From positions 1 to 48,435 of the forward strand of contig DASXWI010000080.1 of NCBI GenBank assembly GCA_036503755.1: a stretch of 48,435 bases of DNA, in the 5' to 3' direction. Position 1 is the stretch's first letter; every line of letters starts with the position of its first letter. Positions 35,846 to 48,435 of the stretch are shown here, piece by piece. Below the pieces are notes generated by a model. That model was given only the letters and a program-made list of their open reading frames with translations. It was not told the DNA's origin and did no database searches. Source of the DNA: Saprospiraceae bacterium. GTDB lineage: Bacteria > Bacteroidota > Bacteroidia > Chitinophagales > Saprospiraceae. Both the position numbers and the translations under genes were made by a program.

Positions 35846-36730
35846 TTAGCCGGCAATGAGTTTCATAAGATACTGGCCATACCCGCTCTTTAACAAAGGT
35901 TGTGCCTGAATTGCTAACTGGTCTTTGGTGATGTAGCCCATTCGGTAGGCAACTTCCTCAATACACCCGATTTTTAGTCCTTGTCGTTTTTCAATAATAC
36001 GGACGAATTCAGTAGCATCGTGAAGACTGTCGAAGGTGCCGGTGTCAAGCCAGGCTGAACCCCTTCCAAAGGTTTTTACCCTCAACCGCCCTTGTTCCAG
36101 GTAAGCTTTATTGACATCTGTTATTTCATATTCTCCTCTTGGTGAAGGGCTGAGATTTTTAGCGATATCTACTACAGAATTGTCATAAAAATAGAGGCCG
36201 GGGACTGCATAGTTGGACTTGGGATTAGTTGGTTTTTCAACAATTTCCAAAGCCTTCATATTTTCATCAAAGGATACAACTCCATATCGTTCAGGATCAG
36301 AAACAGGATAAGCAAAAATGACTGCGCCATCAGGATTCTTACAATCGGCGAGGAAATCCGGCATCTGTGTCCTGTAGAAAATGTTATCCCCAAGTATCAG
36401 ACAAGCGGAATCATTACCTATAAATTCAGCACCTATCACAAAAGCCTGGGCGAGACCATTAGGTACGGATTGAATAGCATACTGAAAATTACAACCCAAT
36501 GCGCTACCGTCCTCAAGCAACCTTACAAATCCGGCGTGATCTTCTGGGGTAGTAATGATCAGAATGTCCCTGATGCCAGCTAGCAACAGCACAGACAACG
36601 GATAATAGATCATAGGCTTGTCATAAACCGGGATCAATTGCTTAGACACCGCACGAGTTATGGGATAAAGGCGAGTGCCGGAGCCGCCTGCTAGTATAAT
36701 ACCTTTCACAAGGGTAAAGATAGTGAGCAT
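35846..36730 (-). CDS. rfbA: Glucose-1-phosphate thymidylyltransferase
   Basis: [24 protein letters not shown] signature and strong family-like sequence throughout. The track start at 36847 is a TTG and adds a non-homologous extension. The real start is the ATG at 36730 or, more canonically, the GTG at 36709 (giving MKGIILAGG, 287 aa). Confidence 0.9.
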
Positions 36731-36945
36731 AGGGCATAGGGCATAGGGCGACGAAGCATATCGAAGCGCAGTGGAGATTCCGCTATGTAACGAAGCCATA
36801 AAGCGGGAGGGCATAGAGCATGGGGTATAGGTTAGGAAGCAGATCAAAGAGCATTGGAGATTGCATAATGATGCAAAACCATTAAGCGGGAGAAAAAGTA
36901 AATTCGTGAAAATTCGCGTGAATTCGCGGCGGAGAAGGCAGGAGA
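36731..36945. repeat. Low-complexity intergenic island with short tandem and dispersed repeats
   Basis: Read directly: GCATAGG x2 (36727-36745 region), GCATAGAGCATGGGG, and ATTCGTGAAAATTCGCGTGAATTCGCGG. Two GGAGATT...AAGCGGGAG units start at 36773 and 36856 and match at about 26 of 37 positions. Confidence 0.5.
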
Positions 36946-44457: not shown

Positions 44458-45516
44458 GTGTATCCATATTTTAAGATCCTGAGGGTTGTCCTAATCCTAT
44501 CCATGCCCGGACTACTCTTTTGTACCAGTAAAGACAAGGCGTCCCCTACCGGAGGCCCACCCCAGGGAGCCCAACAGTTGCTTGCTGTTCAGACCCTCAT
44601 AGCCAATCCACAACCGCTGAGCTCAAATATTGAGGTTCCAGGCACTATTCTGCCGAATGAATCCACAGAAATTCATCCGGAGATTTCCGGAAGGCTGGTT
44701 GCGCTGAATATTAAAGATGGAGACCGGGTAAGTAAGGGTGCATTGCTGGCCAGGTTGTATGATGGAGATCTTCAAGCCCAGCTACGCAAACTTGAGGTCC
44801 AATTGCAGATCGCCGAGCAGACAGAGAAGCGCCAGGCAGAGCTATTGAAAATACAGGGTATCAGCCAGCAGGAATATGATATCAGCTTATTGCAGGTATT
44901 AAGCCTGAAAGCGGATATGGAAATTGTCAAAGAAGCCATAAACAAAACAGTGATCAGGGCTCCGTTTTCGGGAAAGCTTGGATTGAAGAATGTGAGTCCA
45001 GGAGCGTATGTCACACCGGCTACAGTACTCACCACCATCAGCCAGGTGGATGCATTGAAAATCCAATTTAATATCCCTGAACGATACGGATCGTTGCTAC
45101 GTGCAGGAATGCCCATTTCATTTACGGTGGATGGCTCCGGAAAATCATTTACAGCAAATGTGATTGCCTCAGAAATCAGCATTGATGAAAATACAAGAAG
45201 CCTTGCGATAAGAGCGAAAGTTGCACAACGAGATCCTGTGCTGATCCCGGGTGGATTTGCGAAGGTCAAGATTGTATTCGGTAAACAAGAAGAAGCGTTG
45301 ATGGTGCCAAGTAATTCCATCATTCCGATTGGCCGGAAAAAACAACTCTACGTATATGAATCAGGAAAGGCCATGGTGCGTGAAGTGACCACAGGTGTCA
45401 GGGATAGTACCAATATCCAGATTCTGACAGGGATAAAGACAGGAGATACAGTGATTACGTCGGCGATTTTGTTTTTGAGGCCGGGACTCGAAGTTTCAAT
45501 TGCTAAGAGCAATTGA
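44458..45516 (+). CDS. Efflux RND transporter periplasmic adaptor subunit (MFP), probable lipoprotein
   Basis: GTG start. Lipobox-like LLFCTS, lipoyl-like hairpin GRLVALNIKDGDRVSKGALLARL, a coiled-coil and a beta-barrel domain, 352 aa. Confidence 0.88.
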   Translation: MYPYFKILRVVLILSMPGLLFCTSKDKASPTGGPPQGAQQLLAVQTLIANPQPLSSNIEVPGTILPNESTEIHPEISGRLVALNIKDGDRVSKGALLARLYDGDLQAQLRKLEVQLQIAEQTEKRQAELLKIQGISQQEYDISLLQVLSLKADMEIVKEAINKTVIRAPFSGKLGLKNVSPGAYVTPATVLTTISQVDALKIQFNIPERYGSLLRAGMPISFTVDGSGKSFTANVIASEISIDENTRSLAIRAKVAQRDPVLIPGGFAKVKIVFGKQEEALMVPSNSIIPIGRKKQLYVYESGKAMVREVTTGVRDSTNIQILTGIKTGDTVITSAILFLRPGLEVSIAKSN

Positions 45517-45521
45517 ATTCA

Positions 45522-45553
45522 CGTCAGTCGTGAGTCGTCAGTCGTGAGGTGAG
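45522..45553. repeat. Left flank of the four-helix-bundle cassette: CGTCAGTCGTGAG twice in tandem plus extra GTGAG units
   Basis: Read directly: 13-mers at 45522-45534 and 45536-45548, and GTGAG again at 45549-45553. Confidence 0.85.
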
Positions 45554-45686
45554 AATCTTAGTGCTGGAGCAGAGTAGAGATTTTAGTTGAGTTTGAAAAA
45601 AAATGGAATTTGATAGTAACAAATAGGATTGCTTAATACACTTAAGAGTGACAAAATCTTCTTTTTCACTTTTAAAAAGCAATAAC

Positions 45687-46052
45687 ATGTTCCTACCATT
45701 GGCACACACAAAACTGGATGTCTACAAATGTTCGAAAGAATTTGTTCTTTCTTGTTATAAGTTAACGAAGGAGCTTCCGGACAGTGAGCGATTTATTTTA
45801 ACACAACAAATTCGAAGAGCAGCATTATCTGTTCATTTGAATCTCGCAGAAGGAAGTTCAAGAAAATCAAATACAGAACGAAAACGATATTATGAAATCG
45901 CAAGGGGATCAATTATTGAAATTGATGCAGCATTTGATATTTGTTTTGGATTGGACTATCTAACAATTGAAATAATGCAACCAACCGGAGATTTAATGGT
46001 TCGAACGTTTCGAATGTTAAGCAAAATGATTGAAAAATATGATCTTGAATAA
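45687..46052 (+). CDS. Four-helix-bundle protein (23S rRNA intervening-sequence protein family)
   Basis: The ATG at 45687 gives 121 aa. The pattern KLDVYK...F....YKLTKELP..ERF.L..QIRRAA.SV..NLAEG..R.S..E...Y..IA.GS..E fits this family. The track start at 45648 is a GTG. Confidence 0.8.
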   Translation: MFLPLAHTKLDVYKCSKEFVLSCYKLTKELPDSERFILTQQIRRAALSVHLNLAEGSSRKSNTERKRYYEIARGSIIEIDAAFDICFGLDYLTIEIMQPTGDLMVRTFRMLSKMIEKYDLE

Positions 46053-46120
46053 CATCAATATCGAGAGTTTATATATGAATCACAGCTCTTTGAGTAAAAG
46101 CACAATTACTATTCTATTCT

Positions 46121-46174
46121 CTCACGTCTCACGACTGACGCCTCACGATTTCAAACTCACAACTCACAACTCAC
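46121..46174. repeat. Right flank of the cassette: CTCAC-rich tract containing the exact reverse complement of the left 13-mer, plus (AACTCAC)x3
   Basis: Read directly: CTCACGACTGACG at 46128-46140 is the reverse complement of CGTCAGTCGTGAG. Three AACTCAC units lie at 46154-46174, ending 3 nt before the pump start codon. Confidence 0.85.
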
Positions 46175-46177
46175 AAA

Positions 46178-48435
46178 GTGAATCTATCTGAACTCAGCCT
46201 CCGCCGTCCCGTTCTAGCGATGGTTTGTTCCATCCTGATCATCATATTCGGGGTGATCGGGTATTCATTCCTGGGAGTAAGGGAGTATCCGGCGATCGAT
46301 CCGGCGGTAATTAATGTCAGCACTTCGTACGTCGGAGCTAATCCGGATATCATAGAGCAACAAATCACTGAGCCCCTTGAGAAGGTGATCAATGGCGTAC
46401 AAGGCGTAGTCAACATCACCAGTACCAGCACGCAAGGAAGAAGTAATATCACGGTTGAATTTGAGCTAGGGGTAGATCTCGAAAGGGCAGCTAATGATGT
46501 AAGGGATAAAGTGTCACTTGCTGCGGGCAATTTGCCGCAGGATATTGATGCACCTCCAACCGTGAGTAAATCAGATTCAGATTCTGATCCGATTGTCTTT
46601 TTGCAGATCCAAAGTCAGACAAAAAACCTGATGGAACTGACAGACTATGCAGAGAATGTGGTGCAGGAACAGTTACAAACCATCTCCGGCGTAAGTTCGG
46701 TCAATGTATTTGGGAAGCGACGTGCAATGCGACTTTGGATTGATCCTTCCAGGTTGGTTGCACACCGGATGACGATAGGCGATATCAGAGATGCGTTAGA
46801 AAGGGAAAACATCGAGCTACCAGGAGGTAAGATTCGAGGAGACCAGACGCAGCTAATTATCAAAACCTTTGGTAAGCTCACCACAGAAAATGAATTCAAC
46901 AACCTGATCATACGAGAGGATAATAACGGAGTAATTCGTTTGAAGGATATTGGTTCTGCAGAACTGGGACCCGAAGCTGAAGAATCCTCTTCGCGAAAGA
47001 ATAATGTACCATGCGTGAGCATGGGGATTGTTGCTCAACCAGGAAGCAATCAAATCGAAATCGTGGATGAAATTTATCGACGACTTGAATCGATAAAAAA
47101 AGATATGCCTGCGGATATCATCCTTGAAGTAGGATATGACCGCACAACCTTTGTGCGCAAAGCCATCCTCGAGGTGAAAGAGACCCTGCTCATTGCCATC
47201 TCCCTTGTAGTAATCATTATCTTTTTATTTTTCAGGGAATGGACAATTGCACTTCGTCCATTGATTGATATTCCTGTTTCATTGCTGGGGGCGTTTTTCA
47301 TTATGTACATTATGGGTTTTTCCATCAATGTATTGACGTTGCTGGCGATTGTTTTGGCGACAGGTCTTGTGGTAGATGATGGTATCGTAGTGACGGAGAA
47401 TATTTTCAAGCGGATGGAAGCGGGGATGAATAAATACAAGGCTGCACTTGAGGGTTCGAAAGAAATTTATTTTGCAGTCATTGCTACTTCGCTGACACTA
47501 GCTATTGTATTCCTTCCTATTATATTTCTTGAAGGATTCGTAGGAAAATTATTCAGGGAGTTTGGTATCGTGCTGGCAGGAGCCGTATTGATATCGGCAT
47601 TCGTATCGTTGACACTTACACCGGTATTGAATATTTACCTGACACGTAAAGGAGTACATAAACATTCAAAGTTTTATCTCTGGACCGAACCGTTTTTCGT
47701 GGGTCTTGAGCGTTTTTACAAAAGCAGCCTTCAAGGTTTTATGCGTGCCCGGTGGTTAGCCCTGGTCATGGTAGGCGCGTGTATGGCTATTATTTATTTT
47801 CTCGGCAGAAAACTTCCATCAGAATTAGCACCTATGGAAGATCGGAATCGTGTACGCGCTAGCGTAACAGGGCCGGAGGGAACTGATTTTGATTTTACGG
47901 ATGCTGTTACATATCAGATCACGCAGCAATTAATGGACTCCATACCTGAGCGATCTTTAGTACTTGCATTTGCTCCAGCATTTTCAGGCAACCAGGGTAG
48001 CAATGCATCTTTCATCAGCATGGGTTTGATAGATCCGGAATACAGGGAGCGGTCGCAAAATGAAATCGCTCAACAGATGAGCCGGATGTTTAAAGAGTAT
48101 ACAAGCGTCAAAGCCTTTGCGATCCAGGAGCAAACGATTTCAGTGGGTATTGGCGGAAGGGGATCCTTTCCGGTACAATATGTATTGCAACACCTGAGTT
48201 TTGATAAACTTAAGGAAAAGGTGCCTCTGTTTATGGAGGAAGTCAGAAAGAGCCAGGTCTTCCAGGGATTTGATGTCAACCTGAAATTTAACCAACCAGA
48301 ATTGCAAATCACCATTGATCGGTTGCGCGCAAATGAACTTGGGGTATCCGTGTTGGATGTAAATAATACATTACAACTCGCATTGAGCGGAAGACGATTT
48401 GGATATTTCATCATGAATGGTAAACAATACCAGGT
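46178..48435 (+). CDS. RND efflux pump permease (AcrB/HAE1-like), 3' end off-window
   Basis: It is absent from the ORF track because no stop occurs in the window. My own translation from the GTG at 46178 gives (M)NLSELSLRRPVLAMVCSILIIIFGVIGYSFLGVREYPAIDPAVINVSTSYVGANPDIIEQQITEPLE..., a classic RND N-terminus. The frame stays open to 48435, and the minus-strand ORFs here are antisense shadows. Confidence 0.9.
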   Translation, partial: MNLSELSLRRPVLAMVCSILIIIFGVIGYSFLGVREYPAIDPAVINVSTSYVGANPDIIEQQITEPLEKVINGVQGVVNITSTSTQGRSNITVEFELGVDLERAANDVRDKVSLAAGNLPQDIDAPPTVSKSDSDSDPIVFLQIQSQTKNLMELTDYAENVVQEQLQTISGVSSVNVFGKRRAMRLWIDPSRLVAHRMTIGDIRDALERENIELPGGKIRGDQTQLIIKTFGKLTTENEFNNLIIREDNNGVIRLKDIGSAELGPEAEESSSRKNNVPCVSMGIVAQPGSNQIEIVDEIYRRLESIKKDMPADIILEVGYDRTTFVRKAILEVKETLLIAISLVVIIIFLFFREWTIALRPLIDIPVSLLGAFFIMYIMGFSINVLTLLAIVLATGLVVDDGIVVTENIFKRMEAGMNKYKAALEGSKEIYFAVIATSLTLAIVFLPIIFLEGFVGKLFREFGIVLAGAVLISAFVSLTLTPVLNIYLTRKGVHKHSKFYLWTEPFFVGLERFYKSSLQGFMRARWLALVMVGACMAIIYFLGRKLPSELAPMEDRNRVRASVTGPEGTDFDFTDAVTYQITQQLMDSIPERSLVLAFAPAFSGNQGSNASFISMGLIDPEYRERSQNEIAQQMSRMFKEYTSVKAFAIQEQTISVGIGGRGSFPVQYVLQHLSFDKLKEKVPLFMEEVRKSQVFQGFDVNLKFNQPELQITIDRLRANELGVSVLDVNNTLQLALSGRRFGYFIMNGKQYQ

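Follow-up and report, generated by a model that had tools for sequence, protein, structure and literature searches.

The stretch analysed here is a 48,435-nt contig of a Saprospiraceae bacterium (contig DASXWI010000080.1 of assembly GCA_036503755.1; hereafter the window, or C80). It carries a 661-bp insert between the adaptor gene and the pump gene of a resistance-nodulation-division (RND) efflux operon. Judged from sequence comparisons, this insert is a hairpin-armed gene cassette of the type known from 23S rRNA intervening sequences (IVSs), and it has long been resident at the adaptor–pump junction. The same comparisons indicate that the cassette design is specific to one family of four-helix-bundle (4HB) proteins and that it sits at several unrelated loci. 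The source genome is a metagenome-assembled genome (MAG) of 3.56 Mb in 688 contigs, 83% complete, and among named relatives Candidatus Opimibacter skivensis is the closest (75% identity in the adaptor).

The insert was read directly in the sequence at positions 45517-46177, between the adaptor stop codon (TGA, 45514-45516) and the pump GTG at 46178, which aligns with the ATG of relatives whose pump begins MNLSEL.... A preliminary description of the window had reported the insert and its flanks, and every coordinate that it claimed for them matches our direct reading of 45300-46400. The features of the junction are as follows.

44458-45516, + strand: RND membrane-fusion (adaptor) gene, 352 aa; PF16576 (HlyD_D23), E 1.5e-24; orthologues in 80 relatives.
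45522-45553, + strand: left arm, G-rich, with tandem heptamers CGTCAGT/CGTGAGT (x4) and then GTGAG, 5 nt past the adaptor stop; from sequence reading, the repeat finder and Tandem Repeats Finder (TRF).
45616-45643, + strand: bipartite promoter-like motif GTAACA-N16-ACACTT (family consensus GGTmACA-N16-GACACTA); by-eye count.
45642-45675, + strand: predicted leader hairpin of ~13 bp, then TTTAAAA..ATG; from the minimum-free-energy (MFE) and centroid folds.
45687-46052, + strand: 4HB protein gene, 121 aa, of the 23S rRNA IVS protein family; matches to PF05635, TIGR02436 and PDB 2GSC.
46121-46148, + strand: right arm, paired part, with C-rich CTCAC/CTGAC heptamers and containing 46128-46140; from sequence reading, the MFE fold, the repeat finder and duplex energy.
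46149-46177, + strand: unpaired extension of the right arm with (AACTCAC)x3.3, a 5' leader directly before the pump cistron; from sequence reading and TRF.
46178-48433, + strand: RND pump gene of the AcrB family, GTG start, continuing past the window end; PF00873, E 2.5e-199.

The cassette is built of five parts, namely a G-rich GTGAGNN array, the promoter-like motif with its leader hairpin, the PF05635 gene, a C-rich array, and an unpaired C/A-rich tail. On the left, the 13-mer CGTCAGTCGTGAG stands at 45522-45534 and again at 45536-45548, followed by GTGAG at 45549-45553, and its exact reverse complement CTCACGACTGACG lies on the right at 46128-46140. The exact inverted 13-mers that had been described around the insert are thereby confirmed, as a pair on the left and a single reverse complement on the right. 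Six CTCAC units (46121, 46128, 46142, 46156, 46163, and 46170) and one CTGAC make up the right side, where TRF places the (AACTCAC)x3.3 array at 46154-46176 and the final CTCAC stops 3 nt short of the pump GTG. Period 7 was called by TRF both there and at 45522-45545, which makes these arrays tandem heptamers of the type named STRR/LSSR. The repeat finder delimits arms of 21 nt at 45528-45548 and 46128-46148, with a complementarity of 95%.

Folding of 45510-46185 pairs 45526-45554 with 46121-46148 in the MFE structure (z = -5.6), and the arm–arm duplex reaches -47.0 kcal/mol, compared with -17.4 ± 3.5 kcal/mol for shuffled right arms. The predicted stem of ~28 bp comprises helices of 9, 13, and 6 bp, interrupted by one mismatch and one 2-nt bulge. 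The earlier suggestion that the flanks could form a long imperfect stem is thus upheld by a stable long-range prediction, and the element, like an IVS, is enclosed by terminal inverted repeats in a long stem. A gene for RNase III is present in the genome (contig C684). An Rfam scan of 45300-46400 returned solely a chance snoRNA match (E 0.96), and a scan for sigma-70 promoters and intrinsic terminators, which is ill-suited to Bacteroidota, found none inside the cassette.

With regard to the gene itself, the window protein matches PF05635 (E 8e-29; 100.4 bits against a cut-off of 33.8) and TIGR02436 (E 9e-26; 90.3 bits against a cut-off of 24), and it aligns with PDB 2GSC (XCC0516) at E 1.6e-18. 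2GSC is the pentameric XCC0516, and a toroidal homopentamer of four-helix bundles is a feature of the family; the window protein is linked to it by sequence similarity. These matches substantiate the claim that the insert encodes a 121-aa four-helix-bundle protein of the IVS family. The family motif GxxRxxxSxxxNxxE, for which Lin (2006) is reportedly the source, is represented by its RxxxSxxxNxxE core (QQIRRAALSVHLNLAE; context QQIRRAALSVHLNLAEG), with Q replacing the leading G. Among six pairs of homologues with estimable dS, dN/dS ranged from 0.01 to 0.14 (window/L017, 0.05; window/L015, 0.13; L020/L022, 0.14; L057/L070, 0.13; L014/L016, 0.01; L numbers denote loci in the genomes compared). 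These ratios show that purifying selection acts strongly on intact 4HB copies and that such copies are functional.

The leader of the gene is also shared within the family. By-eye counting found the bipartite motif upstream of ~25 of 93 4HB genes from the source genome and its relatives; a strict pattern for it gave 4 matches genome-wide, and a regulon could not be demonstrated. Leader stems are kept in orthologues with differing sequences (GGTGA/TCACC, GGATGA/TCATCC, and AAGGGA/TCCTTT), and the TTTAAAA..ATG that comes after the hairpin is conserved as well. The motif and the covarying hairpin may represent a dedicated internal promoter and 5' stem-loop of the 4HB family. On contig C315, the bipartite motif is followed directly by GGCAGAA arrays without a gene, which looks like a remnant.

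That the arms belong to the gene family is indicated by counts with controls. The source genome holds 13 PF05635 matches, and nearly all of them are enclosed by inverted tandem arrays whose units differ from copy to copy (CTACCAG, AGCTTAT, TAGACGA, AATTACG, GCAAGGA, GCAGTTA, GTGATGN, and one of TTCGATA type). A gene was scored as armed when the best ungapped complementary segment between its 250-nt flanks reached a score of at least 16. This held for 9 of the 11 testable 4HB genes of the source genome, compared with 11 of 2011 other open reading frames (ORFs). Among relatives (30 genomes, 28 with matches; 80 loci fetched, 78 testable), 51/78 4HB genes scored at least 16 and 60/78 at least 14, with arm units of period 7 and occasionally 8-10. 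The RNAduplex energy of 200-nt flanks was dropped as a control statistic, being non-discriminating (median -64 kcal/mol for any gene).

The preliminary description had proposed looking for the same flanks around other copies and had counted unshared flanks against its reading. Taken literally, that objection applies: the GTGAG/CTCAC sequence is not shared by the 12 other copies in the genome, which have other heptamers. The inverted-pair design is shared, each copy having its own complementary pair, and such private pairs are stronger evidence for this design than one shared sequence would be. Similarly, a genome-wide search for the 13-mer showed that it does recur (43 occurrences), and that it is not cassette-specific; 40 of the occurrences lie away from the cassette, so the arm sequence is not private to it. 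Arm similarity follows protein similarity, the mean sharing of arm 6-mers being 0.60 at protein identities of at least 80%, 0.26 at 65-80%, 0.125 at 50-65%, and 0.01-0.02 below 50%. As far as these sequences tell, the gene and its arms are descending together.

The history of the site was traced in relatives using the adaptor protein as query, which gave 80 orthologous loci. The junction is filled with a 4HB match in 12 of them, with gaps of 454-725 nt (L014-17, L020, L022, L055, L031, L035, L045, L057, and L070); the 4HB copies in L031, L035, and L045 are pseudogenes. In L018, L019, L023, L064, and L088-90 the gap is 3-7 nt, as the preliminary description had anticipated in calling the insert a separator of normally adjacent genes; many other loci have gaps of intermediate length. 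At every filled site the left arm is of GTGAGNN type, and the right arm, of NNCTCAC/NNCTGAC type, reaches the pump ATG; the insert-bearing relatives therefore have related GTGAG/CTCAC flanks and not unrelated ones, a comparison that had likewise been suggested at the outset.

Partly deleted cassettes connect the filled and the empty sites. In L029 and L030, pairwise alignments reveal an internal deletion that has spared a single GTGAG together with the gene's 3' end and the right arm. L048 has both arms and a truncated gene, L069 has both arms and no recognisable gene sequence, and L049, L033, and L044 have the right arm alone, at the pump ATG. After loss of the gene, CTCAC/CTGAC heptamers still stand directly before the pump ATG in L049, L033, L030, L029, and L044. 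In the adaptor tree, the filled sites all fall into one clade of 39 rows (support 95), where remnants and short gaps stand among them; outside this clade, L069 and, less clearly, L061 are likely remnants. The simplest reading would be an old acquisition followed by many independent losses, and the remnants indicate that the cassette is decaying by internal deletion.

The occupants of the site have not simply followed their hosts. The 4HB protein of L015 is 84% identical to that of the window, and the adaptor of L015 is sister (99) to those of L014/L016, whose 4HB proteins share 54-55% identity with that of the window and 72-75% with those of L020 and L022. The 4HB tree is thus incongruent with the adaptor tree, which implies that cassettes were exchanged at the RND site at least once. 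The arm type tracks the protein clade (GTGAG+TC/GC vs GTGAG+TT/TG). The 4HB subfamily with the MFLxLAHT signature and GTGAG/CTCAC arms occupies the RND junction in 9 fetched relatives. It also adjoins an amidohydrolase-like gene at its 3' end, antisense to it in L136 and L141 and sense in L162, and in L156 it stands between peptidase-like and transporter-like genes (flanking genes at these four loci were named by eye from translations). Both orientations next to one host gene point to inversion between the arms or to independent insertion. The L162 copy has an in-frame stop. Elsewhere, two 4HB genes lie <2 kb apart in opposite orientation on a 3.2-kb contig of the source genome (C590; L175), and in genome G028 tandem 4HB genes stand within 2 kb of each other amid AATTACG-type arrays (C1:4046544-4048276; L137 and L140).

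The arms have a fixed polarity. G exceeds C in the 5' arm of 52/56 armed cassettes (p = 1e-11), and because a sequence of the form X...rc(X) is identical on both strands, being G-first is a property of the hairpin and not of gene orientation. Gene-less tight hairpins (loop <60 nt) are G-first as well (15:0). Array pairs around ordinary genes show the opposite polarity, with G-first to C-first ratios of 4:12 at inner distances of 300-800 nt and 16:29 at 60-300 nt. In 24 co-directional cases, the upstream stop and the paired left segment are separated by a median of 10 nt, and the paired right segment and the next start by a median of ~32 nt. By a rough method based on edge ORFs, the 4HB gene shares the orientation of both its neighbours 22 times and runs antisense 7 times, with a further 8 genes in convergent and 12 in divergent spacers.

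Heptamer arrays are also abundant in the genome at large. TRF detected 743 merged arrays of period 7 or 14, with 75 canonical unit types among those of period 7, and 93% of the arrays are intergenic. They occupy 233 co-directional and 174 convergent spacers, and rarely divergent ones (54). Those in co-directional spacers mostly start no more than 15 nt past the upstream stop and are G-rich on the sense strand (71:23), and the few that end right before a start codon are C-rich (15:5). An inverted partner lies within 3 kb of 166/743 arrays. The window itself has a further array, GCATAGG x3.3, at 36727-36749.

How the cassette works can be modelled on rRNA IVSs. Transcription of the operon would run through the cassette, possibly joined by initiation at a promoter inside it. 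Once transcribed, the arms would pair into the ~28-bp stem, looping out the cassette and drawing the adaptor stop and the pump start together, and the stem would be a substrate for RNase III, on the model of 23S rRNA IVSs. Cleavage would then free a 4HB mRNA closed by the residual stem and part the adaptor and pump messages, the pump message keeping an unstructured C/A-rich leader. Bacteroidota largely do without Shine-Dalgarno pairing, which is why the C/A-rich tail could serve as a pump leader. At the DNA level, the inverted arrays would stay complementary through slippage and conversion and would promote the deletions seen in relatives. By analogy with the rRNA systems, we consider there to be about an even chance that the arms do pair in the operon transcript and that RNase III cuts the stem. 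The proposal of an IVS-type element living in an mRNA is borne out in part (the insert, the IVS-family gene, the predicted stem, and related flanks in relatives). On the choice that it offered between a selfish and a regulatory element the evidence points both ways, the gene being under strong purifying selection where it is intact and yet deleted many times in relatives.

Several observations weigh against an IVS-like cassette that acts through RNA. Over 26 stems, G-U mismatches number 12 on the sense and 13 on the antisense strand, with 42 transversions, so there is no coding-strand bias; most mismatches are transversions between unit variants. This comparison does not tell maintenance at the RNA level from maintenance at the DNA level. 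With no G-U bias on either strand, pairing is apparently kept by concerted evolution of the arrays, without need for selection on RNA, and arm complementarity appears to be maintained in this way, possibly purely at the DNA level. In addition, 29 nt are left unpaired between the window's stem and the pump start, so that the stem is not flush. The cassette is antisense in 7/29 operon-like contexts and is also found in divergent and convergent spacers, and host read-through is consequently not obligatory. Heptamer arrays evidently lead an existence of their own, there being 743 of them and 13 4HB genes. Finally, comparison with the empty site of L019 gave no target-site duplication at the boundaries (TGAATTCA abutting CGTCAG, and CTCACAAA abutting the pump GTG), and no gene for an enzyme of movement is contained in the cassette.

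Some of these points would also fit an element that acts as DNA, its arms mediating insertion, inversion, exchange, and deletion as hairpin, cruciform, or slipped strands through host replication and recombination, with the RNA stem as a by-product. This would explain the absent G-U asymmetry between strands, arms that gain and lose units and yet stay complementary (as between L014 and L016, whose proteins are 99% identical), both orientations beside the amidohydrolase-like gene, the exchange at the RND site, deletions that end in or beside the arms, and the identical G-first polarity of the two strands. It has to contend with the lack of a target-site duplication and of any associated enzyme, be it a transposase, a recombinase, or a reverse transcriptase (the genome has no PF00078 match), with a site occupied stably over deep divergence, which argues for little movement, and with the preference for co-orientation with flanking genes (22:7). 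Arms that lie near the host stop and tens of nucleotides from the next start also suggest constraints at the transcript level. Considering both sides, we regard a primarily DNA-level element as possible but unlikely. It is also conceivable, although we think it quite improbable, that G-first heptamer hairpins are native to the lineage as 3'-end or junction structures and that 4HB genes land or persist in their loops, in which case the arms would be owned by the host. The excess of arrays over 4HB genes, their intergenic position at stop codons (93%, with the G-rich bias of 71:23), the 15:0 polarity of gene-less tight hairpins, and the window 13-mer at 40 places outside the cassette all agree with such a capture. 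However, arm similarity follows protein relatedness, between loci too, and the gene-less hairpins at the RND site are deletion remnants with gene pieces (L048 and L029) or just arms (L069), which means that tight hairpins are, at least in part, products of cassettes and not their forerunners.

Two further explanations carry next to no weight. Some of the 166 arrays with an inverted partner enclose ordinary genes, e.g., an HxlR-like regulator and an FMN-reductase-like gene (named by eye), and one could suppose that an inverted heptamer pair came to surround a small gene by chance in a repeat-rich genome. The control count (9/11 vs 11/2011) and the 51/78 in relatives contradict this, array-bracketed ordinary genes have the opposite polarity, and the whole unit is conserved at the orthologous site; a coincidence is hence extremely improbable. 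Equally remote is a role of the 4HB protein as an Avd-like accessory protein of a diversity-generating retroelement, Avd being a homologue of the PF05635 family. The search for a PF00078 reverse transcriptase found none in the 83%-complete genome, and no pair of template and variable repeats was seen at the locus, leaving both this role and repeats made by a reverse transcriptase unsupported. What speaks for the retroelement is that PF05635 is cited in a review of diversity-generating retroelements (PMC10053308).

The reading of the insert as a hairpin-armed cassette of the IVS type can be set against known systems. Ralph and McClelland are reportedly the reference, from 1993, for ORF-bearing 23S rRNA IVSs. 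Such IVSs occur in Coxiella burnetii, Leptospira, Brucella, and Xanthomonas (PMC4990558); in the Coxiella element the stem of 28 bp is broken by one mismatch and one bulge, heptamers occur in tandem, and RNase III cuts were mapped to mid-stem (Warrier et al. 2016, PMC4990558). The insert encodes the same protein family (S23p/PF05635) as these elements and falls into the same size class, at 661 nt against 428-444 nt. Also common to both are inverted repeats at the ends that pair into a ~28-bp stem interrupted by a mismatch and a bulge, heptamers repeated in tandem on the 5' side, and a sporadic distribution in which the ORF has decayed in some lineages. The insert differs in its host, which is an mRNA operon junction instead of helix 9, 25, or 45 of 23S rRNA, and in having both arms made entirely of heptamer arrays. 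Its ORF is strongly selected and has its own conserved leader, whereas the Coxiella ORF is probably untranslated and decaying, and RNase III excision is demonstrated there and, by analogy, proposed here. Lying between protein genes rather than inside a 23S rRNA helix, the insert was not filed as a member of the 23S IVSs. The 4HB gene at C243:3239-3584 (L174) is truncated at the contig end, and after it come CTCAC-type arrays and then three tRNA genes on the same strand; a link to an rRNA operon through this copy was rejected, as the contig holds the tRNA genes and no rRNA.

Comparable repeats without a gene have been described as TAACTGA repeats (STRR/LSSR) in Beggiatoaceae, Cyanobacteria, and Bacteroidetes (MacGregor 2015, PMC4679880), and G-rich heptamers are reported from Xanthomonas and Nostoc (PMC4692102). 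Like the arms, the STRR/LSSR repeats have period 7, are intergenic and often right before start codons, come in many unit types, and break draft assemblies; AACTGAC, found at the RND site in relatives, is one letter and a register shift apart from TAACTGA. Those repeats are direct and no gene family is named with them, whereas the pairs here are inverted, have a fixed G-first polarity, and enclose a specific gene. Genes of the same family, with the motif GxxRxxxSxxxNxxE, have been found wedged between cmr3 and cmr2 as 23S_rRNA_IVP (Zhang et al. 2013, PMC3936711). They resemble the insert in standing between adjacent operon genes with almost no spacer and in the RxxxSxxxNxxE core, but that study treats them as possible cas-associated functions and leaves flanking inverted repeats or insertion unmentioned. 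Miniature inverted-repeat transposable elements (MITEs) and the repeats known as REP/BIME are likewise short, intergenic, bounded by inverted termini, able to form mRNA hairpins, and present or absent between relatives. Here, a conserved protein gene is enclosed, the termini are tandem arrays with variable units and no family-wide consensus, and neither a target-site duplication nor a partner transposase or RAYT was seen. None of the marks of a transposon or MITE (duplication, terminal consensus, or transposase) was found, and the arms differ between copies. Our full-text literature search yielded no description of a 4HB gene with inverted heptamer arms outside rRNA.

Two old puzzles meet at this locus, i.e., the role of the protein encoded by 23S rRNA IVSs (since 1993) and the origin of tandem heptamer repeats (since 1990). 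The junction offers a natural allelic series that runs from the intact cassette to the closed junction by way of a pseudogenised cassette, a gene-less pair of arms, and a lone right arm. To what was known, it adds a deep series of filled, decayed, and empty sites, a lineage in which about two thirds of the family members are armed, the contrast in polarity, and the co-divergence of arms and protein. The selected protein, the fixed polarity, and the conserved leader make direct tests possible, namely of RNase III cleavage, of binding between protein and repeat, and of coupling between adaptor and pump. If the stem is indeed processed, it would represent an rRNA-type intervening sequence operating in mRNA, and a general way for a gene to inhabit operons without breaking them. 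More speculatively, 4HB proteins and G-first heptamer hairpins could form one self-contained system in which each lineage recognises its own unit in RNA or single-stranded DNA, the pentamer binding ~4-5 arm repeats and thereby controlling processing, maintenance, or spread of the cassette; 23S rRNA IVSs would then be those copies that ended up in rRNA, and some of the intergenic heptamer arrays in Bacteroidota and Cyanobacteria would be footprints of the system. We consider this wider proposal unlikely.

Several minor observations were made along the way. Among the few armed genes of the source genome outside the 4HB family, two are GxxExxY genes (TIGR04256, PD-(D/E)XK-like) and one is DUF559 endonuclease-like (C688:1523-1918, L176; C523:1942-2346, L177; C360:1030-1425, L178). 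Their arms are long inverted repeats and not simple heptamers, and they suggest that hairpin-armed small-gene cassettes extend beyond the 4HB family. A dispersed imperfect repeat, TTCGCACGGAG..GGAG..CACGGAG, adjoins several genes together with its complement (C688, C532, and C164) and forms the arms of one GxxExxY cassette. Among the orthologous loci, L066 and L067 encode an identical adaptor protein in MAGs labelled Ignavibacteria and Chitinophagaceae, which probably reflects a binning error in one of them.

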